A stretch of 32,280 bases of DNA from an uncultured virus (IMG/VR IMGVR_UViG_3300027971_000002) (Duplodnaviria; Heunggongvirae; Uroviricota; Caudoviricetes): the IMG/VR virus record IMGVR_UViG_3300027971_000002; one strand, written 5' to 3'. A program made the translations under genes and the position numbers. Shown here in pieces: positions 1 through 24,281 of this stretch. The notes below the pieces were generated by a model. That model searched no databases, was not told the DNA's origin, and saw nothing but the letters and a program-made list of their open reading frames with translations. Each line of letters starts with the position of its first letter. Position 1 is the first letter of the stretch.

Positions 1-128
1 AAAAACTCTATTTCGTCTTGGGTCATGAAGTTTTCTAGCTCAACAATCATGTCTTTGCTATCCCCAAACCAACCTGATGGGGTTATAGATGGCGTTCTTT
101 GAACTACCTTGTATGAGCTTTTATCCAT
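1..128 (-). CDS. Partial CDS running off the window edge; probable third 2OG-Fe(II) oxygenase (N-terminus only)
   Basis: Not in the ORF track. Manual translation from ATG at 128 gives MDKSSYKVVQRTPSITPSGWFGDSKDMIVELENFMTQDEIEF... The segment 'IVELENFMTQDEIEF' resembles the start of P4H-type domains, and the ATG lies just after the upstream stop. Confidence 0.6.
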   Translation of the reverse strand, partial: MDKSSYKVVQRTPSITPSGWFGDSKDMIVELENFMTQDEIEF

Positions 129-130
129 TT

Positions 131-847
131 TTATATTGTATCTCTCTTTGTTGTATCTACTACCCCTAATTTTAATGTTTTTACCTCATGAGAACCTAAG
201 CTCTCTTCTTTTTCATTAACAGCGTCTCTGTACCAGTCTGTCCATTCTCCAACAGTATTTAGTTTTTGTGCGGCAACTCCATAGGACGTATTCGCATCTA
301 ATCTCGTTCTATTTGGGTCTTGGTATTCAACAATTTTAATAGTTGTCCCATTTAAGTGCGACAACGATATAGGAATAACGGTGGCAACTGGGGTTCCTGC
401 TTTAATTATAACTCGTTTATTTGCAATCTTTGCTTTAATAGCTAAAGGCAAGGGGTGGTCATAAAAAGAAGTACTAATCACAGACGACATAGTCTCAAAC
501 TCATTACTAAAGTAATTTACTGGGTTAATGATGAGTGTACTAACCGTTTTATCTGTTCTAAAAATTAAACCAGTTTCTAAACTTATAGAAGACTGACCTC
601 TACCAGAGTAAGCGCCTTCTGGACTAAATATTTGAACATGGTTTGGAGTTTGGTCGTTTACACCATCCCAAATGAACTCAATATCCTTTGAACAAGACAT
701 GCTCCAGCCAATTACATTTGACTGTGTTACTGGAAAGCACCTGTAAGCATGGTTTTCTGACGTCGCATCCATCCAGTCTCTTTTAATTGACATAGGCTGA
801 ATGTCAAACAAAGACCCTTGTGTTTTTTCAACTGAGATGTTAAACAT
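131..847 (-). CDS. DUF6065-like protein
   Basis: 238 aa with RDWMD...HAYRCFP...N..GW and a C-terminal GTPVATVIP motif; overlaps the upstream stop by 1 nt. Confidence 0.65.
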   Translation of the reverse strand: MFNISVEKTQGSLFDIQPMSIKRDWMDATSENHAYRCFPVTQSNVIGWSMSCSKDIEFIWDGVNDQTPNHVQIFSPEGAYSGRGQSSISLETGLIFRTDKTVSTLIINPVNYFSNEFETMSSVISTSFYDHPLPLAIKAKIANKRVIIKAGTPVATVIPISLSHLNGTTIKIVEYQDPNRTRLDANTSYGVAAQKLNTVGEWTDWYRDAVNEKEESLGSHEVKTLKLGVVDTTKRDTI

Positions 848-1503
848 TAATCTGCATCTGCGCTATACATCTCTGGAGTGTGAAACTTTTTGCTGTAATC
901 AAGCATGGTCACAATAGAGTATTTAGTCCCAGAGGTTACTGGCATTGCTTGGTGGGGATACATAAAGTTTGATGGAAAGATGAACAGGTCTCCAGCTTCT
1001 GCTTTAACTTTTAAGTTTTGTAATCTAAAGTAAAGCTCTCCACCTTCGTAGTCATCATTTGGGTATGCAACTAAAGAGAGGGTACAGTTATAAGAAAACC
1101 CATGGTCGTGATGCTCCATAAAGTGTTGGCCTGGGCCGTACTTAATAAAGTTAAAGGCTTCCCAGTACTTTAGGTTGTTAATGTTATACATCTTTGAGTA
1201 GTCTTGAACCGCAGGCAGTTTAACGTCGTATAGGTCTTGCCACAAAGCTTGAAGGTTTAAACTAACCTGACTTTTGTCGTTTTCTATATCCGTCTTCTTA
1301 AACTTAAAGTCGTTGCAATCTCTATACTCTGGCATAAGCTGCTTATACCCGACATATGCGGGTTGCCAGGCGTACCCAGTGGTATCCCCTTCTGGCTTAA
1401 GGTTAGCCTCAATTCGGCCTATAACATCAATATCCTTATTGATTACGCCCTTATAGCAAAAAATGCCATTGCCTAAATCAACTTTTTCTGTCCATGTTTG
1501 CAT
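847..1503 (-). CDS. 2OG-Fe(II) oxygenase, prolyl 4-hydroxylase-like
   Basis: KYGPGQHFMEHHDH (HxD), YPNDDYEGGEL, GDLFIFPS, and YPHQAMPVTSGTKY (distal His and 2OG-binding Lys). Confidence 0.9.
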   Translation of the reverse strand: MQTWTEKVDLGNGIFCYKGVINKDIDVIGRIEANLKPEGDTTGYAWQPAYVGYKQLMPEYRDCNDFKFKKTDIENDKSQVSLNLQALWQDLYDVKLPAVQDYSKMYNINNLKYWEAFNFIKYGPGQHFMEHHDHGFSYNCTLSLVAYPNDDYEGGELYFRLQNLKVKAEAGDLFIFPSNFMYPHQAMPVTSGTKYSIVTMLDYSKKFHTPEMYSADAD

Positions 1504-1512
1504 TTGTAGTCC

Positions 1513-2280
1513 TTATCTGTATTCCCGCATTGACCAAACACTATTTTTGTATACCCCGCCGTCAGGTTGGCGGTAAAACCTCATGTTAGTAACCATTTTA
1601 TCATATATCGTAGACTGGTCTAAAATCTCTATTTTGTGTTCCCAATCTTCTCTTTTAAAAGGAAGAACCTGAATATATGGGGTTCCTGCTGGTAATGTGC
1701 CTTCCCAGCCTTCTGTAATAAAGAAGGGAAAGCTACCAAGTAAATGAACTTTGTCAGAGTCCACAACCCCAGTAGTGTTTAAAAATGGTAAGTCAAATCT
1801 ATTCATTGGGGTCATAAACAGTGCGCTGTATCCTTCTGGAAGCTCTAACCCCCAAGGAGAACTCCAAGCAAAATGGCTTTGGTAATAACCCTTTGGGTGT
1901 TCAAACTGCGGCATTGGGGGGCGTTGAGTACAAAAATCTTTGTACTTAGGGTCATCAATTTTTACATTTATGACGCCTTGACTATTTTTATAAAAGATTA
2001 AATCGCAGGGTGTTTTAAAAAGATACCCAGTTGTAAAGGCGTCCAGAATAGCGGGGCAAGCTTTCCACGTAGGAATCTTTCCATAGTCGTCGGTCGTACC
2101 CTTTTTAGGAAAAGGACAAACTTCTTTGGGCGCTTTGTAGTATTCCCCGTCTGGGTCCTTATAGAACCTATCCGCACTTTTATACCAATTTGGAATTTCG
2201 GTTTGTGTTGGGACGGGCTTAGAAACATCTTCTTTTTTTATCCAAGGCCTAAAAGGTCTAAATATGGCAACCAAAGACAT
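1513..2280 (-). CDS. Conserved phage protein, DUF6065-related with possible dUTPase-like fold
   Basis: TWKACPAILDAFTTGY, TGVVDSD, FPFF and GTPYIQVLPFKRE; same motif layout as 131-847. Confidence 0.55.
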   Translation of the reverse strand: MSLVAIFRPFRPWIKKEDVSKPVPTQTEIPNWYKSADRFYKDPDGEYYKAPKEVCPFPKKGTTDDYGKIPTWKACPAILDAFTTGYLFKTPCDLIFYKNSQGVINVKIDDPKYKDFCTQRPPMPQFEHPKGYYQSHFAWSSPWGLELPEGYSALFMTPMNRFDLPFLNTTGVVDSDKVHLLGSFPFFITEGWEGTLPAGTPYIQVLPFKREDWEHKIEILDQSTIYDKMVTNMRFYRQPDGGVYKNSVWSMREYR

Positions 2281-2987
2281 TACTTGTGCCCTAACTCATT
2301 AATGTCTGTCATAACAACAACGCAATATTTTGTTCCTGACACCATGGGCAGAGAGGCGTGTTCGTAAATGTAGTTTGAGGGAAATACTGCAATGTCTCCT
2401 ACTTTTGGTTTATAGATTAAATTATCAAGTCTTGGAAACTTTATATCTCCACCCTCATAATCATCATTAATATATATAACGGCAGATACTGTGCAATTAT
2501 AAGCAGGGCCGTGGTCTGCGTGAATATTAAAGTGGGTCCCACTTCCCTCATACTTTACAAAGTTAAAAGCTTCATAATAAACTACGTTAATGCCCCAGTA
2601 TTTAGCATAATCATCTATGCAGTATTTAAGCTTTTGATAAATTTCTTCATGCAAGTCTATCAGTTCTGCATTTGATTCGTCTCTGAGCCCAAGCTGTTCT
2701 TTTTTATATTTAAAGTCTACACAGTCTCTTGCTTTTTTAATTGGGGTATTAGAGTTTGTAACTCTAGCCTCTGACCATTTATATTTGCCATCTGTTGATA
2801 GGTTAGACTCAAGGGTGTCAATGTATCTTGCAGCATCTTCACTAGAAAAAGTATTTTGGTAAACGTTTAGGCCCAAACCTAAGTTTTTAACACTTACCTT
2901 ATTGTCTAACGCCCTTTCAGGGGTCCTATTTGATGCGGTCTCTGACCTATCCTTTGTAAACCAAATATTTTCGTTTTCGTTATGCAT
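2280..2987 (-). CDS. 2OG-Fe(II) oxygenase, prolyl 4-hydroxylase-like
   Basis: HFNIHADH (HxD), YINDDYEGGDIKF, GDIAVFPSNY, YEHASLPMVSGTKY; a clear paralog of 847-1503. Confidence 0.9.
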   Translation of the reverse strand: MHNENENIWFTKDRSETASNRTPERALDNKVSVKNLGLGLNVYQNTFSSEDAARYIDTLESNLSTDGKYKWSEARVTNSNTPIKKARDCVDFKYKKEQLGLRDESNAELIDLHEEIYQKLKYCIDDYAKYWGINVVYYEAFNFVKYEGSGTHFNIHADHGPAYNCTVSAVIYINDDYEGGDIKFPRLDNLIYKPKVGDIAVFPSNYIYEHASLPMVSGTKYCVVVMTDINELGHK

Positions 2988-3240
2988 TTTTTTCTTCTTC
3001 TTCCCATTTACCTAGGGGGCATGATGCTAGTTCTAGTTTTGCTTTGAATTTCATAACACACCCACATTTTTTGCATTGAGTAGTCAAAGACAAAAACTCA
3101 GGACAGCCTCTACAGATATTTAATCTGTTGGAATACGCTTCTTCATCTACATATTGAGTACTTGGGTTTAGCAAATCCCAAGGTCTAGTATCTCCTAAAT
3201 TTTGTTTATACTTTTGCCAAGGAGTTAAACCTTCTTCCAC
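2980..3240 (-). CDS. Small Cys-rich metal-binding protein (DUF6171-like)
   Basis: RLNICRGC...QCKKCGC.MKFK.KL...SCPLGKW; GTG start preceded by AGAGGG. Confidence 0.7.
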   Translation of the reverse strand: MEEGLTPWQKYKQNLGDTRPWDLLNPSTQYVDEEAYSNRLNICRGCPEFLSLTTQCKKCGCVMKFKAKLELASCPLGKWEEEEKNA

Positions 3241-3259
3241 GGTGCCCTCTCTATAATTA

Positions 3260-3652
3260 TTAAAGTTCGGCTACCTCATAGGTGATGGTCGGGTTACTTG
3301 AAAGGGCGGCAATCCTCATATCGTTGTCCCCGAATCCTACGCAATAGCCGTTCATCCCATAATAGACATTATCTTTAAGAAAAGCAAAAGACACACACCC
3401 GTTTGTGCAAACCACTCCACAAGCCAGTCTGTGTTCTTCGCCTTCAGGAGCAATGAACTCTGACCCATTCCAAACACTAAGTTTGGCAGGGATATAGTTC
3501 AAATGCGTTATATCTAGTATCTCTGGATTATTAGATAGAGCATAATCTTTGTCTATTTTAGAGTCTAACGGAAGCCCAGAATCATCTAACTCTATTGAGT
3601 AGAAAATAATTTTATCTCCGTCTAAATTCAGGTAAAAGTTTTTTACTTTCAT
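3260..3652 (-). CDS. Hypothetical protein with an internal duplication
   Basis: 130 aa, AAGGAG RBS, two similar motifs (YALSNNPEI and AALSSNPTI) and a CGVVCTNGC segment. Confidence 0.7.
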   Translation of the reverse strand: MKVKNFYLNLDGDKIIFYSIELDDSGLPLDSKIDKDYALSNNPEILDITHLNYIPAKLSVWNGSEFIAPEGEEHRLACGVVCTNGCVSFAFLKDNVYYGMNGYCVGFGDNDMRIAALSSNPTITYEVAEL

Positions 3653-3660
3653 ATCGCTCC

Positions 3661-4503
3661 TTAGTCGTCACAACCGCAAACATTACCGCAGTTATCGACG
3701 ATAATGCATGACCCGCCGCCACATGTCCTACTGCAATCTGTAATGCCACAATATCCGCTTGGTACGCAGGCAAAGTATGGAAAAAACGGCGGGAAGAATG
3801 GGAAATACGGTGGAAAAAACGGCGGGAAGAATGGGAAGAATGGGAAGAACGGTGGAAAGAACGGCGGAAAGAACGGAAAGAACGGTGGAAAAAACGGCGG
3901 GAAGAACGGTGATAGGGTAGTGATTGACCCAGACGCAGGAGAGGCGGTGCTTGTTCCGTTAGCATTAGTTGCTGTAACTGTGTATGTCTGAGAAGTGCCA
4001 CCCGTATCACTAATAACAATAGGAGATGAAGCCCCTGTTCCAGTAGTGGCATCACTGCCTGTTACGGTAAAGCCAGTAATAGCGCTACCACCAGTTGCTG
4101 GGGCTGTAAAAGCAATTGAGTTTTGATTAACTCCAGCGGTAGGGGTAGGGGCAGACATTGTTGCAGGGACTGTTGTTGCGGTAATAGAATTTGATGCTGC
4201 AGATGCTTGAGAAGTTCCAGCAGCGTTAGTTGCTGTTACGGTAAATGTGTAAGCCGTATTAGATTGCAAACCTGTGACTGTAACTGGGGAGGATGACCCA
4301 GTTCCAGTATACCCGCCAGGAGATGAAGTTACAGTAAACGATGTAGCAGCAGGGGATAGCGCAGGCAAAGAAAATGTAACTGTAGCTGCGCCATTGTTAA
4401 ATGCTCTGCCTGTTCCAACATTTGTAGCAGTCCCGATTGTTGGCGCCGATGGCTCTAGAAAGTCGTTTGAAGCCTGTGACTTCTTTCCAAATCTTTTACC
4501 CAT
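3661..4503 (-). CDS. Fibronectin type III domain protein with Pro/Phe repeat and Cys-rich tail; probable virion fibre tip
   Basis: Two FN3-like repeats (VTGLQSNTAYTFTVTATNAAGTS; TYTVTATNANGTS), then a 46-aa PFF/PPFF tract, then an 8-Cys C-terminus. Confidence 0.85.
   Translation of the reverse strand: MGKRFGKKSQASNDFLEPSAPTIGTATNVGTGRAFNNGAATVTFSLPALSPAATSFTVTSSPGGYTGTGSSSPVTVTGLQSNTAYTFTVTATNAAGTSQASAASNSITATTVPATMSAPTPTAGVNQNSIAFTAPATGGSAITGFTVTGSDATTGTGASSPIVISDTGGTSQTYTVTATNANGTSTASPASGSITTLSPFFPPFFPPFFPFFPPFFPPFFPFFPFFPPFFPPYFPFFPPFFPYFACVPSGYCGITDCSRTCGGGSCIIVDNCGNVCGCDD
3772..3909 (-). repeat. Coding tandem repeat of 9-nt and 12-nt units encoding PFF/PPFF/PYF
   Basis: Encodes PFFPPFFPPFFPFFPPFFPPFFPFFPFFPPFFPPYFPFFPPFFPYF, with synonymous codon variation between units. 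Confidence 0.95.
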
Positions 4504-4507
4504 TTTC

Positions 4508-7354
4508 TTAAGCCGTCAAGTCGCCGTAGACAACCCAAGTATTTGTTGCTCTCTTAAAGAGAGTTGCAGATGACCATTGAGTTCTTAGCTTTAATCCTGG
4601 TGTTGAGTTAACTGTAACTCCAGCATCTCCTGCAATTGTTACTTGTCCTGTAGAAGTTTGAAGAATATCTATAGATGTTCCAACTGGATAAGCCACTGCT
4701 GAGTTTAATGGAATAGTAATTGTTGTAGCACTTGAACTGGCAACTTCAATTAGAGAGTCTCTTTCTGTAAGTGCTGAAAGTGCATAGGAGGCTGTCTTTT
4801 GGATAATTGGTGTACGTGAGGGTACGCCTTCTTTTGTCTGTGTACCATCAGTAAACGCTAAACCAGCAGAAGATGCTGTTATTAATCCAGAACCAGATAC
4901 TGTAAGTGCTGCTACAGTGTTTGTACCAGTAAAAGTTGGTGATGCAAGTGGTGCAAATCCTGAAATACTTGCACCCGCAGGAATTGTTACTGTACCAGTA
5001 AATGTTGGTGACGCAAGGTCTGCTTTAAGTCCAAGGCTTGTTGATAACCCTGATATCTTAGACTGAGCAATAGCGGCTGACGCATTAATATCTCCGTCAA
5101 CAATAGTTCCATCTAAAATCATTGCAGATGTAACTGTACCTGTATCTGCCGCAGTAATTGCAGTACCAGAAATCTTTGTTTTAGCGATTGCTGCGGAGGC
5201 ATTAATATCTCCGTCAACAATAGTTCCATCTAAAATCATTGTTGAAGTAACTCCGCCAGTTGCAATATCAAGTGTTCCTGGCGTAGATTCTGTTAGACCA
5301 GAGCCAGCTGTAATTGCTTTAGCAGCATTAAATGCTACATATGTTACGTTTGTTGTCCCAATTGTAATTGCTGATGTATTAGAACAAACATACCCGTAGC
5401 CTGAGCCTACAGTACCTTCAAGTACAAGTGTAAAGTCTCCACCCTTTAGTTCTCCATCGGGAGTATTGTCTGCATCTGTTGCGCGTGACCATGCACTTGC
5501 TGATGCTACATAGATACCGTTTTGAGTTCCTGTTGTTTGGTCTTTAACAAGAACACGGTCTCCAGCAACAACTGATACACCATCAATTGTTTGCGCTCCG
5601 CTTAGCGTAATATTTGCTGTTGTAGCAACTCGTACTGGTTGATGAAAGTTAAGTCCAGAAACAACATTGTCAACATATGCCTTTGTTGCTGCATGGAGGT
5701 CTACTGTTGGTGCGCCTGAAAGAGTAAGTGCTCCTGTCATCGTTCCGCCAGCAAGTGCTAACTTAGCATCAAGTGCTGTTTGTGTAGCTGTAGAAACTGG
5801 TTTTGCCGAATCTGCAGTATTGTCTACGTTGTCAAGGCCGACCATTGTTTTTGTAATACCTGAAACGGTACCTGTAAATGTAGGCGCGTTTAGGTTAGCT
5901 TTTAGGTCAAGAGCTGTCTGCTGTGCTGTAGACACGGGCTTGTTGGCGTCTGACGTGTTGTCAACATTAGCAAGACCAACATGAGTTTTTGTTACACCAG
6001 AAACTGTTCCAGTAAATGTAGGGTTAGCAATTGGCGCCTTTAGGTCAAGGGCGGTCTGTTGAGCCGTTGAGACTGGTTTATTAGCATCGGTTGTGTTATC
6101 AACATTTGCAAGCCCTACGTGAGACTTAGTTACGCCTGAGACTGTTCCTGTGAAAGTTGGGTTAGCCAAGGGTGCATATGTAGAAGATGCTGTTGCAGAG
6201 GCAAGTTTTAAATCAAGTGCTGTTTGTGTTGCTGTAGAGATGGGCTTGTTTGCATCTGTAGTGTTATCTACATTCCCTAGTCCAACATCTGATTTAGTTA
6301 ATCCAGATGGAGAGGTAATTGTTTTATTAGTAAGAGTTTGAGTTCCATTTGTTGTTACAAGTATAGATGTGTCTGTAATTCCGTGCACAGCGGTTGTGTC
6401 TGAAGAATGAGTAGAAACTGCGGTATCAGCATACGTCTTTGTAGCAAGTGCTGCAGTATCTGCAATTCCGTGTACGGAGGTTGTGACTGAGCTATGTGTT
6501 CCTATTGCGTTGGTTGCATAGTCTTGTGTAGCAAGTGTTCCTGTTACATCTGGAAGAGTTAGGACTCTATCTGCTGTAGGGTCCTCTACTGCTAGTGTAG
6601 TTTCAAAAGCATTTGCTGTAGCGCCTTCAAATACAAGGTTGACACCCGTATCAAGAGACACTGTTCCAGTAAATGTTGGTGATGCAAGATTTGCTTTAAG
6701 GTCAAGAGCTGTTTGTGAAGCTTTAGTTGCAAGTGCATTTGTAACAGTTACTGAGAATGACGCATCATTTCCAAGGGCTGTTGCCAACTCATTGAGGGTA
6801 TCAAGTGCACCTGGCGCAGACGCTACAAGGTTTGAAACCGCTGTTCCTACAAATGCTGTAGTTGCAATTTGTGTAGTAGCTGTACCTGCTGCTGCTGTAG
6901 GAGCTGTTGGAGTTCCTGTCAAACCTGGTGATGTAAGGGTCTTGTTAGTAAGGGTCTGTGTATTAGTTGTTCCAACTACCGCACCAGTAGCACCGTGTGC
7001 TTCTGTAAGATTTGCGTGTGTAGTAACATCTGAAGTAAGTGCTACTGTTCCTGTTGCGTCTGGAAGAGTAATTGTACGGTCGGCGGTTGGGTCAGTTACC
7101 GAAACCGTAGTTTCAAAAGCATTATCTGTTGCGCCTTCAAATGTAATGCTTGAGCCAAATGATGGATTTACTGTTGAATTAGCATCAATAAAATAGTCAA
7201 GGTTTATCCAGTGATTTGTACCATCACCAATTTTAAACTTGTTTGTATCGGTTTCGTACCCGATTTCGCCCGCGTTTAGGATAGGGCCGTTGCCACTGTT
7301 AGTAGATATCCACTGCGCCGCAGTGCCCCTACGCTGTTGCATTCTTGTTGCCAT
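4508..7354 (-). CDS. Long fibre protein with Mtd N-terminal-like domain
   Basis: N-terminal MQQRRGTAAQW...LNAGEIGYETDTNKFKIGDG, APGALDTLNELATALG, DRVLVKDQT...QNGIY, Thr/Ala-rich repeats and a C-terminal NTWVVYGDL module. Confidence 0.85.
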   Translation of the reverse strand: MATRMQQRRGTAAQWISTNSGNGPILNAGEIGYETDTNKFKIGDGTNHWINLDYFIDANSTVNPSFGSSITFEGATDNAFETTVSVTDPTADRTITLPDATGTVALTSDVTTHANLTEAHGATGAVVGTTNTQTLTNKTLTSPGLTGTPTAPTAAAGTATTQIATTAFVGTAVSNLVASAPGALDTLNELATALGNDASFSVTVTNALATKASQTALDLKANLASPTFTGTVSLDTGVNLVFEGATANAFETTLAVEDPTADRVLTLPDVTGTLATQDYATNAIGTHSSVTTSVHGIADTAALATKTYADTAVSTHSSDTTAVHGITDTSILVTTNGTQTLTNKTITSPSGLTKSDVGLGNVDNTTDANKPISTATQTALDLKLASATASSTYAPLANPTFTGTVSGVTKSHVGLANVDNTTDANKPVSTAQQTALDLKAPIANPTFTGTVSGVTKTHVGLANVDNTSDANKPVSTAQQTALDLKANLNAPTFTGTVSGITKTMVGLDNVDNTADSAKPVSTATQTALDAKLALAGGTMTGALTLSGAPTVDLHAATKAYVDNVVSGLNFHQPVRVATTANITLSGAQTIDGVSVVAGDRVLVKDQTTGTQNGIYVASASAWSRATDADNTPDGELKGGDFTLVLEGTVGSGYGYVCSNTSAITIGTTNVTYVAFNAAKAITAGSGLTESTPGTLDIATGGVTSTMILDGTIVDGDINASAAIAKTKISGTAITAADTGTVTSAMILDGTIVDGDINASAAIAQSKISGLSTSLGLKADLASPTFTGTVTIPAGASISGFAPLASPTFTGTNTVAALTVSGSGLITASSAGLAFTDGTQTKEGVPSRTPIIQKTASYALSALTERDSLIEVASSSATTITIPLNSAVAYPVGTSIDILQTSTGQVTIAGDAGVTVNSTPGLKLRTQWSSATLFKRATNTWVVYGDLTA
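5762..6298 (-). repeat. Four tandem copies of a fibre shaft repeat
   Basis: TKxxVGLxNVDNTxDxxKPxSTAxQTALDxK occurs four times, linked by PTFTGTVSG; boundaries approximate. Confidence 0.85.
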
Positions 7355-7394
7355 AGCTGTGTCCTCCCAGACCTTTTACTATTATATCAGATAA

Positions 7395-7955
7395 TTAATT
7401 AAAATTATCTGTTGGACTCCCGCCGTCGTAACCACTATCCCAGGAATCTGTACCATAAAACCCAGCATCTATTATAGATATATTATCTAAGGGGGTTCCG
7501 CCGTCGTAACTACTAGTCCAGGAACTTGTATCATAAAACCCAGCATCTGCTGTAATTATAAATGTTGAATCATAGAACCCTGCATCTTCAAATACAAAAA
7601 CAATTAGCCCAGTACCATCAACCGCGGTGTCGTGAACATGCTGTCTAAGGTCGTCTGCAAAGTTAGCAAGCGCAATCCAATTAGCAGCTCCTGCAGAATA
7701 AACAGATAGACGCATTGATACTGTGTTAAACCATAGTTGCCCATCTACTGGAGAACCTGGTGCGGATGAGGAGGCAGGGGCAATACCATCCCCAGCACCA
7801 CCCCCAGCACCACCACTTGATGCAGCCCAAGCTGTTCCGTTATAGATGTAGAGGGTTGAGTCAGTCGTATTAAAGTACAGGTCACCTGCACGTTGGCCAA
7901 CAGGCTCGCTGCTTTTAGCCAGTACGTTTAGGGGTACTAATGCCTTTGTACTCAT
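7395..7955 (-). CDS. Virion fibre or adaptor protein
   Basis: GDLYFNTTDSTLYIYNG..W and GQLWFNT modules, plus repeated DAGFY and YDGG.P motifs at the C-terminus. Confidence 0.7.
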   Translation of the reverse strand: MSTKALVPLNVLAKSSEPVGQRAGDLYFNTTDSTLYIYNGTAWAASSGGAGGGAGDGIAPASSSAPGSPVDGQLWFNTVSMRLSVYSAGAANWIALANFADDLRQHVHDTAVDGTGLIVFVFEDAGFYDSTFIITADAGFYDTSSWTSSYDGGTPLDNISIIDAGFYGTDSWDSGYDGGSPTDNFN

Positions 7956-7960
7956 TTATA

Positions 7961-9550
7961 TTATCCGATTACGACTACTCTGTAGGCGTTAGATGATGGT
8001 GCGGATGCAAATCCAAGTGTCACAGTGGAGGTTGTAGCGCGGGTGTTATCTACTATAACTTCGTCTCCAGTAGCCACTTCATAAACCTGAACGTGGACAT
8101 CTAGTGTTCCTAGGTTGTGGGTAATTGTGTATGAGGTAGCTGATGTTGAAAGTGTGGTTGAGTACTTTCTAGCTACTACTGTGGCGTCAACAGAGATTGT
8201 GTTAGTGCCCACGGTAATGCCGTTACCAGCGCCAATTGCAAAGCCGTTAGCGTCTGTAGCAGCACCTGAGTTGGTAGCAAGCTTGATAGAAGCTCCACCA
8301 CCAGCTGTTTGCAAACCACCTGTTGAAAGCGGCTCAAAGGTGAAGTTAGAGCCAGTAAGTAGAACACCATTAGATGCTGTGTAAGTTCCAGCGCCAGAGA
8401 ACTGTGTAAATGTAAGAGCTGTTGTTCCTAGAGTGATTGTGTCATCAGTAGTTAGGACATAGCCGTCGTTTCCGTTAGCTGTACCCTCTGAAACAAATAC
8501 AAATAGTCCAGCAGTTACTTCGGAGCTTACGTTGGCATCTGTTGCACGAGTCGGTGCGCCTGACGCGTTAACAGTATAAATACCGTTTTCAGCTCCAGAT
8601 GCCTGGTTCTTAATAAGGATACGGTCGCCAGTTGCAAGTGTGACACCGTCAATAACAGAACCATTAGCAAATGATGAAGCAAGAGTTCCTGCTACTGCAG
8701 TAGCTGCACGAACTGATGCTTTAACATCAAGACCTTGAGCTGTTGAGTCTACGTAAGCCTTGGTTGCAGCATCTTGTGCGCTAACTGGGTCTGATACGTT
8801 GGTGATTAAGTTGCTGTTCATTGAGAACGAGCCGGTTGGAGCTGTTAAATCTGTAACTTTATTTGTACTAAGGATTACCGTTCCGTTAGCATCGGGAAGG
8901 GTGATTGTGCGGTCAGCTGTTGGGTCAGTAGCAGTAAGGGTAGTCTCAAAAGCATCTGCTGTAGCACCTTCAATAATAATTGAAGACCCAGTAACTATAA
9001 GATTTTTGTTTCCATCAAGCCCTGCTACACCACCCGCTATACCGATGTCTGCAAGTTCAACGTATGAGCCTAAAGATGTGGATACGTCTTCTGCCAAAGC
9101 AACGGTTCCTGTTGCGTCTGGGAATGTGATAGTTCTATCTGCTGTTGGGTCTGTAACTGATACTGTAGTTTCAAAAGCATTTGCTGTAGAGCCTTCAAAT
9201 ACAATTGAAGAGTCTAAAGAAACCGTACCTGTAAAGGTAGGGTTAGCAAGAGGGGCCTTTAGGTTTAATTGACCTTGGATGCCTGAGGTGACGCCATCTA
9301 CATAGTTAAGTTCTGTAGCGCTTACGGCGGTTCCAGCAAGAATGTTGATTTCAGCTGCGGTAGCGGTTACGCCGTTAAGTCCAACAGCTTCCCAAATAGT
9401 ACCGTTATAAACACGCATTTCATTAGAAGCGGTGTTGTAGTAAACCTGGCCTGTTACAGGACTTGCTGGGTCAGTCGCTAGATTTTGAATACGAGCATTT
9501 TGAAGCTCGTTCTTCGTCAAATCAAGTGACGTTAAATATTTACGTGCCAT
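7961..9550 (-). CDS. Fibre protein
   Basis: GQVYYNT module, DPVSAQDAATKAYVD, GDRILIKNQ...ENGIY and a C-terminal ITHNLG domain; shares modules with 4508-7354. Confidence 0.8.
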   Translation of the reverse strand: MARKYLTSLDLTKNELQNARIQNLATDPASPVTGQVYYNTASNEMRVYNGTIWEAVGLNGVTATAAEINILAGTAVSATELNYVDGVTSGIQGQLNLKAPLANPTFTGTVSLDSSIVFEGSTANAFETTVSVTDPTADRTITFPDATGTVALAEDVSTSLGSYVELADIGIAGGVAGLDGNKNLIVTGSSIIIEGATADAFETTLTATDPTADRTITLPDANGTVILSTNKVTDLTAPTGSFSMNSNLITNVSDPVSAQDAATKAYVDSTAQGLDVKASVRAATAVAGTLASSFANGSVIDGVTLATGDRILIKNQASGAENGIYTVNASGAPTRATDANVSSEVTAGLFVFVSEGTANGNDGYVLTTDDTITLGTTALTFTQFSGAGTYTASNGVLLTGSNFTFEPLSTGGLQTAGGGASIKLATNSGAATDANGFAIGAGNGITVGTNTISVDATVVARKYSTTLSTSATSYTITHNLGTLDVHVQVYEVATGDEVIVDNTRATTSTVTLGFASAPSSNAYRVVVIG

Positions 9551-9563
9551 TTATTTTTTCTCC

Positions 9564-9866
9564 TTAGGAAAGGTACGCTCTGCCGCTGAATGCCCCGGTG
9601 AAAGTTATCGTAAGGGACATGGTGTTCGTATAGGCTATTTCACCTTCAACGATTGACCCGCCCGAGTCCTGAACAGTTACGTTTGGATACCAACCAAGGT
9701 TGTGAGTTATGGTCCACACAGCCGAAGATGTTCCCTGAGTATGATGATACGCCACAGAGGGTTGATTTATGCCCCCAACTGTAATTTGGTTTAAGGTAAC
9801 CGCAGGCGATGCTGGTGGGGTTACCTGCACAACTACTTGGCCGGCTACTGGAATAAGTCCGCTCAT
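9564..9866 (-). CDS. Small virion structural or adaptor protein
   Basis: WTITHNLGWYPNVTVQD...FSGRAYLS; same ITHNLG domain as the C-terminus of 7961-9550. Confidence 0.7.
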   Translation of the reverse strand: MSGLIPVAGQVVVQVTPPASPAVTLNQITVGGINQPSVAYHHTQGTSSAVWTITHNLGWYPNVTVQDSGGSIVEGEIAYTNTMSLTITFTGAFSGRAYLS

Positions 9867-9867
9867 A

Positions 9868-10926
9868 TTAAGCCAATGTCACTTGTTGGGTTACAAATAC
9901 TTGCCCGCGAATATAGGTCTGTTCGAAGGTTGCATCTGTTGTACTTGTGGCTTGAAGGTCCCAGAAAGCTCGTGCTGGTAAATACTTAGTAGCCGATGGG
10001 GCCATCGTCAAACGAATACGGCCGTTAGCCGCGTCAATTTTAGTAATGTCAAAAGTCGCATAAAGTGCAGGAGCATTTGGATAGGTTCTAATTTGAGCTT
10101 TAAAAGTAAGAGCTGTGACATCAAATGGGAAGTCAAATTCGCCAGACCATGAATCTCCCTGATAAAGGGTGATGTCATAAACACCTGCGTAGGTAGGTAT
10201 TGGCTTACGACCTTTGAGGTCGTTTTGAATATATACGCGCTCTGGTCTACGAGAGTCATCAATCTCTTGAGCCAAGTACATAGGGACGAGCTTGTTAGTA
10301 AGGCGAGAAACACGGCGAAGTGTTCCCATCTCAATACGCCATAGTCCGATGTTAAGTGCAGAGGAAAGCTGCTTGTACTGGTCAGTTCTAGATTGAATCA
10401 TTTGTACAAGCTGGCGGTATCTGTCAGAACGCGGAATCATAACCCCGTCTGGTGAAGATATATTAATATCAAATGCAGAGTCTGTAGCAAGAGCCCATAG
10501 AGCTTCAATTGTTGACAGAATTGCTAATGGGTACTCTTCAACTGGTGGAATCATGGCAATTGTCATCTGGCTTCCGTAGCCATCTGTTCTTTCAAAAGTG
10601 TGCTGTTCAACCGCAGTATTAACAAAGCGGGTTATATCTGTGTCTGTAAAGTATCGGTAATGAGTTCCGACTACTGAGATTGCAGCGTTATTGGCTGGGG
10701 CAGTTACAAATGTAACAATGCCTAAATCTTGTTGAATCGTGTATCCGGCTGGGGTAGCTACTGGGCTACCAGCTACTGTAACTAAAAGAGTTGTGTTTTC
10801 AACAGGCTTCTTTTTTAAGTCAAAAATTTTAGTAGTTCCGTCGCCTGTTGCGGTGTAGGTAAACTGAGTTGGCATGTCGCCTAGCTCAAGCCTTACTCTA
10901 GACACTAGGTCTGCTAATACAGCCAC
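9868..10926 (-). CDS. Head-tail adaptor-like protein with an inserted beta domain and a C-terminal BppU-like domain
   Basis: Position after the capsid genes; VRLELGD...YFTDTDI adaptor-like motifs; GDGTTKIF...GIVTFVTAPA insert; C-terminal LYQGDSW...AQIR...NGRIRL...WDLQ. Confidence 0.6.
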   Translation of the reverse strand: MAVLADLVSRVRLELGDMPTQFTYTATGDGTTKIFDLKKKPVENTTLLVTVAGSPVATPAGYTIQQDLGIVTFVTAPANNAAISVVGTHYRYFTDTDITRFVNTAVEQHTFERTDGYGSQMTIAMIPPVEEYPLAILSTIEALWALATDSAFDINISSPDGVMIPRSDRYRQLVQMIQSRTDQYKQLSSALNIGLWRIEMGTLRRVSRLTNKLVPMYLAQEIDDSRRPERVYIQNDLKGRKPIPTYAGVYDITLYQGDSWSGEFDFPFDVTALTFKAQIRTYPNAPALYATFDITKIDAANGRIRLTMAPSATKYLPARAFWDLQATSTTDATFEQTYIRGQVFVTQQVTLA

Positions 10927-10984
10927 TAACCACTCCTAACGTAACTAATCTAATGGTAGCGGTTACGGCCAAAAAAACTTGATA

Positions 10985-11018
10985 AACGAAACAGCGGGGG
11001 GAAGACCGCTGCTTCGTT
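10985..11018 (-). terminator. Stem-loop after 11025-11390, probable terminator
   Basis: AACGAA-CAGCGG ... CCGCTG-TTCGTT inverted repeat, with T-rich sequence downstream on the minus strand. Confidence 0.55.
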
Positions 11019-11024
11019 AATCAA

Positions 11025-11390
11025 TTAAATATTGGCTGCTAAGTAGCCTTTTTCTTTTAAGTGTTCAGCTACTGAACGTGTAACTTCGTACTTTTGACCT
11101 GGCTTAAAGTTAAAGTTGTTTCCAGCTCCAAGGGTCATGTTTTCAATATTTTCTACAACACGAATAATTACTGTGTCATCTTGCTTACCTACCCGGTCTA
11201 CTGTGTCAACAATAACTGTTTGACGGTCAGGCTTGGTAGCGTCAATAACTTGTGTTTCTGCTTGAATAGCAGCAGTTGCTGTTGCTAGTGACATTTCTTC
11301 AGCTCTCTTAGCTGTTTCATCTGAGAACTGGTCTGCTAGCTCATCACGGCTACGGCCTGTGACGTCTGTTGGTGATTTCTTTGTTGCCAT
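11025..11390 (-). CDS. Hypothetical head-associated protein (start revised to MATKK)
   Basis: GGAGGA RBS before the ATG at 11390; the longer TTG start in the track lies inside a hairpin. Confidence 0.7.
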   Translation of the reverse strand: MATKKSPTDVTGRSRDELADQFSDETAKRAEEMSLATATAAIQAETQVIDATKPDRQTVIVDTVDRVGKQDDTVIIRVVENIENMTLGAGNNFNFKPGQKYEVTRSVAEHLKEKGYLAANI

Positions 11391-11426
11391 TTGTATCCTC
11401 CGGGTTAGTGAATGAGTTTGTGTTGA

Positions 11427-11452
11427 GGCGGGGAGTTTCAAGGCTCCCCGCC
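11427..11452 (-). terminator. GC-rich hairpin after the major capsid gene (terminator or mRNA stabiliser)
   Basis: GGCGGGGAG / CTCCCCGCC 9-bp stem; no clear U-tract. Confidence 0.55.
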
Positions 11453-11477
11453 CAACATTTAAGCTATTAAATTGTGA

Positions 11478-12548
11478 TTAGTTGGTTTCTGCAATAACTA
11501 CAGCCTGGTCAGTGATTAGACCAAGTCCGAAGATTGAGTACCAAGCAAGTGCGTGCTCACGACCGAAGTCTAGAATACCGCCATCGCGGAGTTCTACTGG
11601 AAGTGAGATTGCGTGACCGAATGCGTTATCTCCGATGAAGATAGATGCATAGCGGTCTGAACCACCATTACCTGTCTTTGTAGCAGGTGTGATGTATCCA
11701 CCACCAGCAGTAACTGTTGGGTTAGCAACTGTTGTGTCTGTTGTGTATGAAGTACCAGCACCACCAGCAACCTTTAGGACCTGTGTGGTTTCGATGAATA
11801 CGCAGTCGTACAAACGACCGATTTCACCGAGCATGAAGTTACCAGGTGCTGCGTACTTGGTTACTTCGATGAATTCCGGATTGTCACGTAGCTTACGTGA
11901 CTGGTGTGGGTGAACGAAAGCAACATATGTCTCACCAAGGCGAGGGATGTTCTTTGTTGCTAGGCTCTCTACTGCATCCTTCACAGTGTGAGGTGTCATG
12001 TAGTAAGTGCCTGTCATAGCAGCACGGTTTGCTGCGGTTGTTCCGTCAGCGTACCAAGCATTAACTGCTGTCTGGCCTGAGCGGTCTTCACCGTAGATTA
12101 CTGATGTTGCTGCATAGAGTGTGTCGCGTGACAACTGGTCAAGATAGATTGCCATGTTACGACCAAGAAGACGTGAGGCTGAAGCCATTACGTCATCGAA
12201 TGAAGCGTTCAATAGAAGCTCAGATACAGCAAGAGCATAACCATGCTCAGTTACTGTGATTGAGAACTGTTGCGCTGTAAGAGCGTTTGTCTGCATACGT
12301 ACACCTTCGACAAGTGCTGAAGCAAAGCCGAGGTTGTTGTAACGCATGAAGTTGATTTGAAGACCAGGTGCAACACCTAGTTCAGTCTTCTTTACTGCAA
12401 ACTGCTCAAAGCGAAGAATAGGCATTGCCTGGAACAAGATTTCCTTGGACCAAATTGTCTGAATCGCTTGAGTTAGCTGTGTATTTGTACCTGAGTACGC
12501 TGTAGGTGCTGCGGCAAGATTGCCGGTACCCGTAATGCTTGATGCCAT
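11478..12548 (-). CDS. Major capsid protein (N4-gp56-like family)
   Basis: 356 aa after the scaffold gene; YVAFVHPHQ..LR, GEIGRLYDCVFIET and DFGREHALAWY motifs; AAGGAG RBS. Confidence 0.9.
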   Translation of the reverse strand: MASSITGTGNLAAAPTAYSGTNTQLTQAIQTIWSKEILFQAMPILRFEQFAVKKTELGVAPGLQINFMRYNNLGFASALVEGVRMQTNALTAQQFSITVTEHGYALAVSELLLNASFDDVMASASRLLGRNMAIYLDQLSRDTLYAATSVIYGEDRSGQTAVNAWYADGTTAANRAAMTGTYYMTPHTVKDAVESLATKNIPRLGETYVAFVHPHQSRKLRDNPEFIEVTKYAAPGNFMLGEIGRLYDCVFIETTQVLKVAGGAGTSYTTDTTVANPTVTAGGGYITPATKTGNGGSDRYASIFIGDNAFGHAISLPVELRDGGILDFGREHALAWYSIFGLGLITDQAVVIAETN

Positions 12549-13484: not shown

Positions 13485-15206
13485 TTACTTTTCATACTCT
13501 TCCGGCACTCTCCGTTGTGGGATTTTTGTACCGTAAGCTTCTGTTACAAGGCGCTGTCGTATTCCTTGCTCGCCCATCTGTGCAAACATTTGAGCCTCGT
13601 CAAGGATAGGGCTAGGCGCTCCAGGATTTCCTGGCATAGGTTGACCTTCTGGACCTTGCATTGGTTGAGGTGGCGCACCATCTGGGCCCGGAAGCATTCC
13701 AGTTAATTGAGCAATTTCTTGCTGAATCTGACCCTTAACAAGGTTAAGAGCTCCATCGGCCTTAGCGTCATCAATAAGTTCTTGACGAATTTCCATAAGT
13801 TTTTCATCAGGGAATTCTTCGCCTAGTGAACGAAGTGCGCCTTCCTTAGACTCTAGGCCAAGAGAAAGCATTGTTTGAACTTCGTTAAGCGCAATTAGCT
13901 TGTCAAGCGGTAGCGGAGGCGGGAAGTGTACATATGAGCGGAAGCTGATTGGGTCGTTCAAATCTAAGACTTCAACTTGTCCCTCTTTAAGAGGAGCAAA
14001 ACGTGTACCAGGATTAGCCGCCATACTTTCAGGCTCTTTAACCGCAAGGCTGATAAGAATAAGTTCGTTTACGCGCTCTAGCCCGTGTGCGTATTGAATG
14101 ACTTTTTGGTGATAACGGTTCATCAAAGGCTGGAACATAATTGCTAGTGCTACACCTGAGGTGTTAGATACAGGCATTGCCTGACCAAGAGCAGTTTCAG
14201 GAACACCAGTCATCTCGTGCATTGACTTTTTCATCATTGCAAGGAAGTCCATAGCACCCTTAAGGCCCTGTGCTCCACCTTCAAGGTTTTCTACACGAGC
14301 ATCCTTGGGTAGTCCGCCCCATACTTTATTAGCGCCCTTTTCTAATTGCGACGCTTTAGCACCGATAATAACCGTAACTGGCGCTGCGTGGTAGTTAACG
14401 ATGTCGGCAATATCTGTAGCCGTTTCATTATACGTACGGTTAATTGGAATAATGTCATTGCAATCAGATAGGCCCCAAGGGCTACCAGAAATGCGGACAT
14501 TAGGAATATGAATAATGGGAATAACACCAAGCGGGTTAGGGCGAGAGTCAATGAGTTCATCGTTAATGTACTCCTCAATAGCGTCATCAGTTAAAATTTC
14601 TGTGTAAGTAAACACTTGACGTGTTCCTTCAAGCGATGTACCCCAAAAACGATACTTAAGCTTAAAACGAATTAAACGTTCACGGTCGTGAGGGTGAAAT
14701 TCTGGAAACGCAAATGATGAGTTAAGAGGCAAGATACGAACACGGCCTGGGTGAACTCGACCAGCTGGGTCTTGATAAGCCTCTTCGTAAGCAACTTTAA
14801 TAAAGCAATCGCCTGAGACTCCGCCCTGCTGTCCCATTTCCCAAAGTACTGTTGCTTTGTTGTTATCTACTTCCCAAACTCTTTCTAGCAAGTCAGGAAC
14901 GATAGCCTCTGTCTGCTTAGGGCTACGGAATTGGACGCCCTTACCAAATGTAAAGTTAAGAATAAAGTCTGTAAAAGCACGGTAGTAGTTAAGAACCATC
15001 TGTGATTCGCCTACTTGACGGCGGTATGAATAATGATGACCAAGATACATGGCCCAGTTAAGTGAATAACGGTTTAAACGAGGGCCGTGAACTTCAAATT
15101 CTTCATCCGCTAGTTCTACAAGACCTAGTGGAGAAATAGAAATAGTTAAGTCAGAAGACGCAGCTCTATACGATGGAGGTGAGAAATCTAGACCGCTACC
15201 ACTCAC
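13485..15206 (-). CDS. Portal protein (SPP1 gp6-like)
   Basis: 573 aa; NPLGVIPIIHIPN...WGLSD, SNTSGVAL motifs; position between terminase and scaffold; AGAGG RBS with GTG start. Confidence 0.9.
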   Translation of the reverse strand: MSGSGLDFSPPSYRAASSDLTISISPLGLVELADEEFEVHGPRLNRYSLNWAMYLGHHYSYRRQVGESQMVLNYYRAFTDFILNFTFGKGVQFRSPKQTEAIVPDLLERVWEVDNNKATVLWEMGQQGGVSGDCFIKVAYEEAYQDPAGRVHPGRVRILPLNSSFAFPEFHPHDRERLIRFKLKYRFWGTSLEGTRQVFTYTEILTDDAIEEYINDELIDSRPNPLGVIPIIHIPNVRISGSPWGLSDCNDIIPINRTYNETATDIADIVNYHAAPVTVIIGAKASQLEKGANKVWGGLPKDARVENLEGGAQGLKGAMDFLAMMKKSMHEMTGVPETALGQAMPVSNTSGVALAIMFQPLMNRYHQKVIQYAHGLERVNELILISLAVKEPESMAANPGTRFAPLKEGQVEVLDLNDPISFRSYVHFPPPLPLDKLIALNEVQTMLSLGLESKEGALRSLGEEFPDEKLMEIRQELIDDAKADGALNLVKGQIQQEIAQLTGMLPGPDGAPPQPMQGPEGQPMPGNPGAPSPILDEAQMFAQMGEQGIRQRLVTEAYGTKIPQRRVPEEYEK

Positions 15207-20135: not shown

Positions 20136-20681
20136 ATGCTCAATATCAGAATTAATCTAACGATTAATCTAAGAAAGGTTGTATCAATACTAGGAGTACT
20201 CCTCATTACGAGCTCCCAGATGTTACAGCCAGCGTACGCGGTTAAAGAGTTTAGCAAGACAGTATTACCGCCAGAAAAGGCTATTACTGTATCGCTGACA
20301 CACTTGAAGGTGACCACTACGCAATCAGCTGCTAGGAAAGCCCTAGCAAGCCCACACGCTAAGTACTTTGATGCGGAAGCAACAGCGTTCTTAACTGTGT
20401 ATACCCAAGACTGGTCCGTTAAAGAATGGAATTGTCTTAGATATATTTGGACTAAAGAAAGCCACTTTAATCCAAAGGCCGAAAACAAGAGCTCGGGAGC
20501 ATACGGAATTGCTCAATTTATGCCAAGCACTTGGGGAAACTACAAGGTTGAAAAAACCTCAGACGCCCAACTACAGATTAAATATGGCTTGCGTTACATC
20601 CTAAAGCGTTACGGCAATGCTGCTGACCCAAATGGAGCGTGTAATGCACAGGCCTTCTGGAAGAAGAACAATTGGTACTAG
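20136..20681 (+). CDS. Secreted lytic transglycosylase (SLT/Rpf-like fold)
   Basis: Signal peptide ending AYA; CL..IWTKES.FNPKAEN.SSGAYGIAQFMPSTW catalytic Glu motif; QIKYGLRYI..RYG...C.A..FW....WY. Confidence 0.9.
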   Translation: MLNIRINLTINLRKVVSILGVLLITSSQMLQPAYAVKEFSKTVLPPEKAITVSLTHLKVTTTQSAARKALASPHAKYFDAEATAFLTVYTQDWSVKEWNCLRYIWTKESHFNPKAENKSSGAYGIAQFMPSTWGNYKVEKTSDAQLQIKYGLRYILKRYGNAADPNGACNAQAFWKKNNWY

Positions 20682-22839: not shown

Positions 22840-22948
22840 AGTCTGATTCTAGATGTTTTTTCTCGCACATACGTGCTAAATCAGGAACAACGTAACGCTT
22901 ATCGCATAAAGCGCAGGTATAGCGCTTTATGCGTTCAGCATCATCCAC
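22826..22948 (-). CDS. Small Zn-finger-like protein (40 aa, not in ORF track)
   Basis: GTG overlapping the endolysin stop; MDDAERIKRYTCALCDKRYVVPDLARMCEKKHLESDYGLR (CxxC...CxxxH). Confidence 0.6.
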   Translation of the reverse strand: MDDAERIKRYTCALCDKRYVVPDLARMCEKKHLESDYGLR

Positions 22949-24114: not shown

Positions 24115-24281
24115 TCTTCATCCTTTGGGTTACGTAGTCGGTAAGTCACCGCCCAAGCAAATAATGTTCCCATAATTGCGTACCCCACAATTGTTTTTGC
24201 TGAACCGTCTAGCACTACCCAAGCAATAAACATGCCTAGTAGTGTCCATAGCTGGTCAACCATATCTCTTAGTACTCTCAC
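24111..24281 (-). CDS. Small two-TM membrane protein (56 aa, not in ORF track)
   Basis: [56 protein letters not shown]; 4-nt overlaps at both ends and an AGGAG RBS. Confidence 0.8.

Follow-up and report, generated by a model that had tools for sequence, protein, structure and literature searches.

Why should a phage carry a run of 2-oxoglutarate (2OG) oxygenase genes directly behind a fiber-type gene whose product contains a long stretch of nothing but proline and aromatic residues? The question is raised by positions 1 to 4,503 of the uncultured caudoviricete record IMGVR_UViG_3300027971_000002 (the whole stretch of 32,280 nucleotides is referred to here as the window). A gene for an appendage protein with two FN3 domains and a Pro-Phe-Phe (PFF) tract, the FN3-PFF gene, is followed there by two small genes and an array in which oxygenase genes alternate with genes of the DUF6065 type. 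The features, from high to low coordinate, are as follows.

3661..4503, minus strand: FN3-PFF appendage protein, 280 aa, arranged as FN3, FN3, (FFP/FFPP)n tract and 8-Cys tail
3772..3909, minus strand: tract of P, F and Y only, 46 residues, encoded by tandem repeats
3664..3771, minus strand: hypervariable tip, 36 residues, 8 Cys
3260..3652, minus strand: g130, tip-linked accessory open reading frame (ORF), 130 aa, 4 Cys, no family
2980..3240, minus strand: DUF6171 protein, 86 aa, 6 Cys (PF19668, 31.7 bits against a cut-off of 27; phrog_13558, 1e-17)
2280..2987, minus strand: oxyA, 2OG/Fe(II) oxygenase of the prolyl 4-hydroxylase (P4H) superfamily, 235 aa (PF13640, 39.1 bits)
1513..2280, minus strand: dufA, divergent DUF6065-type protein, 255 aa (phrog_7084, 9.5e-35; no Pfam match)
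847..1503, minus strand: oxyB, 2OG/Fe(II) oxygenase of the P4H superfamily, 218 aa (PF13640, 50.6 bits)
131..847, minus strand: dufB, DUF6065 protein with a predicted dUTPase fold, 238 aa (PF19541, 1e-24)
3..128, minus strand: oxyC, N-terminal 42 aa, cut at the window edge (85%-identical orthologue in the related contig L007)

Two units meet at this point. The first is the final gene of a fiber block, encoding a modular appendage whose tip has its own putative accessories (g130 and the DUF6171 protein), and the second is the start of a tandem dioxygenase array of the kind known from phage Syn9, with P4H-fold oxygenases alternating with predicted dUTPase-fold DUF6065 proteins that share an invariant Cys. 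The explanation that we tentatively favor, while giving it somewhat less than an even chance, is that the array tailors low-complexity structural proteins of the phage, with the PFF tract as the lead candidate among them.

From the FN3-PFF gene onward, neighboring genes overlap by up to 8 nt or stand at most 19 nt apart, and the order from FN3-PFF gene to array is conserved across a large phage lineage. An initial annotation, made from the sequence alone, had described the last gene of the fiber chain as FN3-FN3-tract-8-Cys tail, followed with minimal gaps by two small Cys-containing genes, an alternation of oxygenase and DUF6065-like genes, and a probable third oxygenase. Pfam, an internal repeat and a motif count bear out the first part, gene spacing together with Pfam and PHROG matches the second, and the truncated gene is backed by its orthologue, a 228-aa PF13640 protein at L007:12533-13219. 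The array is longer than either the window or that annotation indicates: in the 100-kb L007 the order is FN3-PFF, a 143-aa ORF, DUF6171, oxyA, dufA, oxyB, dufB, oxyC, a glutathione peroxidase-like (GSHPx-like) gene, three further PF13640 genes and a short-chain dehydrogenase/reductase (SDR) gene. There are thus three PF13640 genes in the window and six in the L007 array, and related genomes hold 6-10 each, nearly all within the array block.

The appendage protein and its tip accessories

The FN3-PFF protein is a modular appendage in which a repeat-encoded aromatic-proline spacer carries an exchangeable C-terminal tip, here an 8-Cys knot. Pfam places an fn3 domain on residues 39-105 (38.2 bits, cut-off 25), and a second FN3-like copy shows up when the protein is compared with itself (residues 20-110 match 111-200 at 53% identity, E 6e-11). 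Residues 199-244 are exclusively P, F and Y, and the DNA that encodes them consists of imperfect tandem repeats with periods of 9, 12, 21, 33 and 42. The pattern coding for FFPPFF occurs six times in the whole window, every time inside the tract, against an expectation of 0 from 100 shuffles.

A scan of IMG/VR with this protein returned at least 318 relatives, and the best 80, in 79 loci, were taken further. Conservation is confined to residues 1-204; the P/F/Y run can be shorter than 20 residues or as long as about 150-165 and differs between close relatives, and the C-terminus takes one of three forms: a hypervariable Cys-rich tail (4-12 Cys, 25-45 residues), none, or a domain of 150-200 residues. 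A profile built from 13 of these domains matches the bacterial intein-like structure 2lwy (E 3e-9) and many inteins, and HNK or HNR terminates nine of the 13. Intein-like (Hint) domains of this kind follow the Pro-Phe tract at L042:8805-9287, L058:8778-9257, L071:8814-9368 and L149:7493-7987, among others, beginning with Cys or Ser and bearing HNK/HNR at or near the protein end. Self-cleavage, if these motifs are functional, would make the tract the C-terminus, like that of the tail-less variants. One clade (L045, L053, L056, L057, L060, L071 and L073) has Phe-Gly-type repeats (FGFTPFGAFG, FSPFGVFGF) instead of the Pro-Phe tract.

A second, motif-first scan, for PFFPPFFP, found at least 126 stretches, and the DNA of 80 loci was taken. 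In this set the tract is preceded by a PASTA domain (L158:544-1218 and L152:7991-8356, above the Pfam cut-off), lies ahead of a Peptidase_S74 fiber-chaperone domain (L169:1085-1762) or a He_PIG Ig domain (L181:7623-8510), or sits inside the protein as a linker, as it does in seven large ORFs (461-1383 aa) of which two are truncated by the locus edge. Its presence in several fiber-type architectures (FN3, PASTA, Peptidase_S74 and He_PIG) shows that the tract is a portable spacer of phage appendage proteins and not the oddity of one gene. The large proteins with an internal tract, of up to 1383 aa, include FN3-bearing ones (for example L121:5673-8549), and some phages have two or three PFF proteins. 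In the literature containing PPFF, FFPP, PFFP or FPPFF, the matches listed were unrelated to a phage Pro-Phe tract. The literature searched appears to contain no description of such a modular Pro-Phe spacer, of exchangeable tips on it (Cys knot, intein-like or none) or of accessory genes that go with a Cys tip.

The two small genes after the tip, which the initial annotation had counted with the enzyme operon, track the Cys tip and not the enzymes. Within 2.5 kb downstream, with each distinct ORF counted once and 3 kb or more of sequence required beyond it, DUF6171 follows 35 of 51 Cys-tailed genes and none of 36 tail-less ones; after intein-like or long-tailed genes it was found in 2/23 cases, and after genes of other tip type in 1/16. 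An ORF of 64-158 aa lies directly after nearly all tabulated Cys-tailed genes, a few having DUF6171 alone, and the families of these gap ORFs include F1 (n = 29), F2 (n = 7) and F5 (n = 4), the last of which contains g130. Where the FN3-PFF gene has no tip, ~70-160 nt separate it from the array. For g130 there were no Pfam or PHROG matches and the best ESM Atlas score (0.82) came without a named family; the gene has a Shine-Dalgarno sequence that shares bases with the stop codon of the gene before it. The DUF6171 protein has the pattern CxxC...CxxCxC...C, and the ESM Atlas clusters nearest to it are viral DUF6171. Both genes may encode tip-specific accessories, serving in assembly, in metal or disulfide handling, or as a distal partner of the tip.

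Fiber tips with downstream assembly or adhesin genes are familiar from T4 (gp37/gp38) and lambda (Stf/Tfa). The likeness lies in a variable C-terminal tip that co-varies with small downstream genes; however, there is no sequence similarity, the tip here is a Cys-rich peptide of 25-45 residues, and the DUF6171 Cys pattern is zinc-binding-like. In the Ser-type long-tailed variants (L004, L009, L011 and L054), three gap genes of families F6, F3 and F7 (168-212 aa) replace g130 and DUF6171, and they appear to form a second tip-specific accessory module. A role for the GSHPx-like gene as thiol oxidase of the Cys tip was considered and rejected: among loci with adjacent oxygenases, the gene occurs in 4 of 33 that are Cys-tailed and in 6 of 25 that are tail-less.

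The oxygenases and the DUF6065 proteins

Both complete oxygenases pass the PF13640 cut-off of 27 bits. Across 35 aligned orthologues and paralogues the HxD...H triad (H131, D133 and H184) is invariant, and the basic residue for the 2OG C5 carboxylate is Lys in oxyA, oxyB and oxyF but Arg in oxyC, oxyD and oxyE; the pairing of triad and Lys noted at the outset therefore describes the two complete enzymes of the window and not the whole array. Lys is the residue that binds the C5 carboxylate in collagen-type P4H, and that of oxyA and oxyB lines up with the Lys of Bacillus anthracis P4H and the Arg of LH3. A PDB profile search with the oxygenase alignment (A3) gave B. anthracis P4H (9e-9), P3H1 (3e-8) and the PBCV-1 enzyme vCPH (1.8e-6), with PKHD hydroxylases, LH3 and PHD2 as the next matches. 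Similarly, the top Foldseek matches of an AlphaFold2 model of oxyB (pLDDT 90.1), at a TM-score of ~0.6, were 3gze (algal CrP4H with (Ser-Pro)5), 4iw3 (PPHD with EF-Tu), 2jig and 5c5t (vCPH), and PHD2 was also matched. Profile and model together make the oxygenases prolyl-hydroxylase-like at the level of the superfamily, which does not fix their substrate.

In relatives without the Pro-Phe tract, unknown ORFs of 210-235 aa are interleaved with DUF6065-type genes where oxygenases would sit (L053:9260-9952, L053:11210-11914, L071:9377-10045 and L260:4582-5286). The two from L053 and the one from L071 reached probabilities of only 0.2-2% in hhalign against the oxygenase profile, but single-sequence queries are weak here and these ORFs may yet be hidden oxygenases.

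The DUF6065 protein dufB scores 87.8 bits against PF19541 (cut-off 26.6), and dufA aligns with it in the DUF6065 alignment (A1), in which W, C, G and P residues are invariant, the Cys being C37. For an AlphaFold2 model of dufB (pLDDT 83.9), the Foldseek matches listed at ranks 1-50 are all dUTPases or dCTP deaminases, and an independent structure search (VIA) aligned it with dUTPases at Z 11.1 over 119 residues, unrelated rows scoring 4.2 or less. Non-enzymatic herpesvirus proteins with the dUTPase fold are among the structure matches. By sequence, no dUTPase family was found for DUF6065: Pfam gave none, and the best PDB profile match was the dUTPase of the virus WSSV at E 0.64. The models indicate that DUF6065 has a dUTPase/dCTP-deaminase fold, and hence it is no obvious decorating enzyme.

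DUF6065 is also cellular: of 301 alphaproteobacterial genomes sampled, 30 have it (including one flagged unpublished). Fusion with a Cupin_8/JmjC oxygenase domain, a signal for partnership between DUF6065 and oxygenases, was found in two of the 20 alphaproteobacterial loci inspected. The fusions (L233:6894-8588, the same as L096, and L234:6378-8024, the same as L099) are 549-565 aa long and have a TonB-dependent receptor, a TbpB-like lipoprotein and a TPS-domain protein as neighbors. Apart from the fusion, the bacterial neighbors are heterogeneous (RTX, DUF3106, TonB receptor, TPS, MatE) and gave no functional lead. A scan of genome contigs with dufB returned seven loci; at least the five closest (L081-L085, 68-81% identical) are binned in metagenome-assembled genomes labelled Flavobacteriales, Luteolibacter, Beijerinckiaceae and Acidimicrobiaceae, are most likely mis-binned phage contigs and are therefore uninformative on cellular context. 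A literature search for the name DUF6065 found no paper.

Gene order and the bacterial fusion lead us to infer that DUF6065 may be a partner of the oxygenases or an adaptor for them. An analogy is provided by the collagen-hydroxylase complexes (C-P4H/PDI, P3H1/CRTAP/PPIB, LH3 and mimivirus L230), which draw on the same oxygenase superfamily and set a catalytic subunit with a non-catalytic partner to work on a repetitive, extended polymer, as might be the case here. These systems differ in that DUF6065 is unrelated to PDI or CRTAP and that the tract has no Gly-X-Y period.

Association of the tract with the array

Adjacency was counted over the unique ORFs of both locus sets, with identical proteins collapsed and the oxygenase on the same strand; ORFs with <3 kb downstream were dropped (seven FN3+PFF, one FN3 without a strict tract, six non-FN3 PFF), and both samples were picked by similarity or motif within one broad lineage. 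All 71 FN3+PFF ORFs have an oxygenase within 3 kb downstream and 64 have a DUF6065-type gene. For FN3 ORFs without a strict tract the figures are 7/13 and 10/13, and for non-FN3 PFF ORFs 17/40 and 17/40, the misses in the latter group including giant proteins and a second PFF gene, which these phages have ~7.5 kb upstream of their FN3 gene. The seven oxygenase-positive FN3 genes without a strict tract are six with (PPxFFA)n repeats, all six of which have adjacent oxygenases, and L060; among the Pro-poor FG-type genes oxygenases are adjacent to one in seven, and a DUF6065-type gene accompanies four of the six that are without oxygenase (4/7 of the whole clade). The difference in oxygenases between the two repeat types runs in the direction that tailoring of the tract would predict.

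A sample seeded with divergent DUF6065 genes approaches the association from the enzyme side. Where a locus has at least six oxygenase or DUF ORFs, a protein with an aromatic-Pro tract lies upstream in 17 of the 18 evaluable cases; by the same criterion it does so in 3 of 61 smaller loci, so that many DUF6065-type genes are without any aromatic-Pro protein.

A more distant parallel is Syn9, whose array comprises ten tandem dioxygenases and two halogenases according to the account of this phage in Iyer et al. (2010, PMC2938197). The Syn9 array (gp41-gp54) follows fiber genes gp32-34 and the Gly-rich gp36, 38 and 39, and then runs through halogenases, gp43 and dioxygenases; there are several tandem classical 2OG dioxygenases, as here, and gp43, a dUTPase-fold protein with a conserved Cys, matches the DUF6065 profile A1 at 6.9e-17. 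By gene order and profile match, Syn9 is an independent, distant case of a low-complexity protein in the fiber locus followed by an array. The two differ in that the tryptophan halogenases and the JmjC member of Syn9 were not found in the window genes or the eight L007 array ORFs scanned, that two DUF6065 copies alternate with oxygenases here, that the upstream protein is Gly-rich there and aromatic-proline here, and that the oxygenase profile A3 finds no Syn9 enzyme at E 0.01. In its part on bacterial dioxygenases, the same paper proposes co-encoded collagen-like and tail-collar proteins as substrates (Iyer et al., 2010, PMC2938197).

PBCV-1 offers a second comparison, with a viral enzyme of P4H fold (vCPH, PDB 5c5t, Foldseek rank 4) that has Lys at the 2OG C5 position, in a virus that also encodes Pro-rich repeat proteins. 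The identity is ~17%, and the present case differs in having prolines flanked by Phe-Phe, many paralogues and a putative DUF6065 partner. The PBCV-1 P4H is said, from work by Eriksson in 1999, to be active in vitro on Pro-rich peptides.

On the explanation that we favor, the array would hydroxylate low-complexity structural proteins of the phage late in infection, with DUF6065 acting as partner or adaptor of the oxygenases. That the PFF tract itself is a substrate we consider somewhat unlikely, and that the reaction is prolyl hydroxylation is unlikely by a further step; were both the case, hydroxyproline in place of Pro might make an extended spacer of polyproline type more rigid, with collagen and the extensins of plants as precedents.

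Several observations weigh against this explanation. Oxygenase adjacency changes only twice on the 84-row FN3 tree, and the independent pairs number three (sign test p = 1); the three changes counted for the tract itself are an overcount, the PPHF-type rows L154 and L158 having been wrongly coded as tract-less. With about two changes on the tree, the counts show conserved gene order and not repeated co-evolution. The complete relatives G304 and G308 are without any FFPPFF motif and still carry four and six PF13640 genes and three and two DUF6065-type genes, for the most part not near the FN3 gene; a giant 959-aa protein of G315 contains a PFF tract ~30 kb from the oxygenases, and a further tract stands at the contig start, upstream of the array. 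Syn9 has no FFPPFF motif, and the low-complexity proteins beside its array contain 2-3% Pro, which argues against proline as a general target. Six to ten oxygenase paralogues per genome are many for one monotonous substrate. Moreover, two enzymes of nucleoside-antibiotic synthesis, PolD and PasI, reach scores against the oxyB model that are close to those of peptide hydroxylases, the orthologous L007 array includes small-molecule-type neighbors (the GSHPx-like protein and SDR), and a class II ribonucleotide reductase (RNR) follows the post-FN3 block in relatives; with SDR or RNR after the block, the array lies where two modules meet, and adjacency at such a place counts for little.

The initial proposal of a substrate-plus-tailoring operon, to be examined by co-occurrence and to fall if the cassette occurred independently of Pro-rich fiber genes, is sustained in part. 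An oxygenase stands near every FN3+PFF gene counted and the order is conserved, but independent pairings are too few to signify co-evolution, and oxygenases without FFPPFF exist in G304, G308 and Syn9, which goes part of the way to that refutation. The prolyl-hydroxylase-like assignment stands for the superfamily by profile and fold, with similar fold matches to PolD and PasI.

Competing explanations and implications

The explanation that competes most closely treats the array as an auxiliary island that has nothing to do with the fiber protein, a freshwater counterpart of the 2OG-oxygenase arrays of cyanophages, which acts on host proteins, small molecules or secondary metabolites and is adjacent because the FN3-PFF gene ends the structural module. 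We regard this as a serious possibility, its chance clearly below even. Relatives of oxyB occur in 287 isolate records, chiefly of Synechococcus myoviruses and Melnitz phages, and the FN3-PFF protein has no match there; isolate-phage searches gave zero matches for window 1-4503 (as DNA), the FN3-PFF protein and dufB, with the reservation that the BLAST low-complexity filter may mask the tract. The retention of four and six oxygenases by the FFPPFF-less relatives, the GSHPx-like and SDR genes, the RNR after the block and the roughly two events on the tree point the same way, as does the passage in Iyer et al. (2010, PMC2938197) in which the Syn9 array is taken to supply the chemistry of secondary metabolites. 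A 2022 survey of auxiliary metabolic genes says, where it touches on viral P4H, that its use 'remains cryptic' (PMC9301287), and the literature found on cyanophage prolyl 4-hydroxylase and collagen included none with tested function.

An unrelated island would leave several features of the locus unaccounted for. The order of low-complexity fiber-locus protein and then array recurs in distant Syn9, an aromatic-Pro protein precedes the large arrays in 17 of 18 evaluable loci, and no enzyme that builds a metabolite scaffold was found among the eight L007 ORFs scanned. The array also lies on the strand of the structural genes, with next to no space between genes; counts of sites resembling promoters or terminators in window 1-10000 are at or below shuffled expectation, which speaks neither for nor against a break in transcription. 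The minus strand carries every gene of window 1-9550. The structural and lysis genes of the window are the following.

4508..7354, minus strand: 948-aa fiber protein, the gene before the FN3-PFF gene (Pfam Mtd_N, 1.3e-12; many PHROG tail-fiber families)
7395-7955 and 7961-9550, minus strand: further fiber-type proteins (Pfam/PHROG, as for 4508-7354)
11478-12548: major head protein
13485-15206: portal
16120-17691: terminase
22948-23505: endolysin

Between the major head protein and the first fiber gene (9564-12548, minus strand) there are only three ORFs (138, 352 and 100 aa), none of which matched a sheath, tube or tape-measure protein; a tape-measure/transglycosylase-like ORF lies on the opposite strand at 20136-20681. 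Related phage contigs reach 100-115 kb, some with terminal repeats.

Less probable by a good margin is that the oxygenases hydroxylate a phage protein other than the PFF tract, either the large fiber proteins or the following candidate.

24278-26203, minus strand: 641-aa Pro-rich protein, predicted secreted, with a signal-peptide-like start and ~330 residues of PT/PS/PE repeats

Pro reaches 50% in a 60-residue stretch of this protein, which also has an acidic helical segment and a C-terminus that is hydrophobic and rich in Gly/Ala. The protein accounts for a spike of GC and GC skew at 25-26 kb, and its PEP/PTP repeats resemble peptides reportedly used as substrates of the PBCV-1 P4H. The three whole genomes checked, G304, G308 and G309, have one long Pro-rich protein each; they include both PFF-less relatives that keep their oxygenases, which tells against the tract as target. 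However, the 641-aa protein lies ~20 kb from the array, and the four Pro-rich proteins were compared by composition; we consider it improbable as the target.

Action of the oxygenase/DUF6065 pairs on nucleotides or nucleic acids is more improbable still: the fold of DUF6065 (Z 11), a DUF6065-type gene placed directly between the FN3 gene and RNR in L073, a weak Tet_JBP match of the oxyC orthologue (3e-4, below the Pfam cut-off) and a match of profile A3 to Naegleria Tet (1e-4) are offset by the lack of a Pfam dUTPase match, a best PDB profile match at E 0.64, the non-enzymatic herpesvirus proteins that share the fold, and peptide hydroxylases as the best oxygenase matches.

In its most far-reaching form, the tailoring explanation would make (FFP/FFPP)n a new virion-fiber spacer, an aromatic-proline polymer in place of collagen-like repeats, with Syn9-type arrays of oxygenases and DUF6065 adaptors existing to hydroxylate such fiber-locus proteins; taken as a whole, we think this rather unlikely. 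The system lends itself to a direct answer, as one small, monotonous Pro-Phe protein lies beside the enzymes and a +16 Da shift would be easily visible. If the tract is not modified, the most obvious candidate would be gone, and attention would pass to the PT/PE-rich secreted protein or to non-protein substrates. Few unexplained gene sets are as common in aquatic phages as arrays of 2OG/Fe(II) oxygenases, which are usually classed as auxiliary metabolic genes. If the array does tailor structural proteins, such arrays, those of cyanophages included, would gain a function and a substrate and would shift from metabolism to the tailoring of virion proteins, with a new fiber material and a role for DUF6065.

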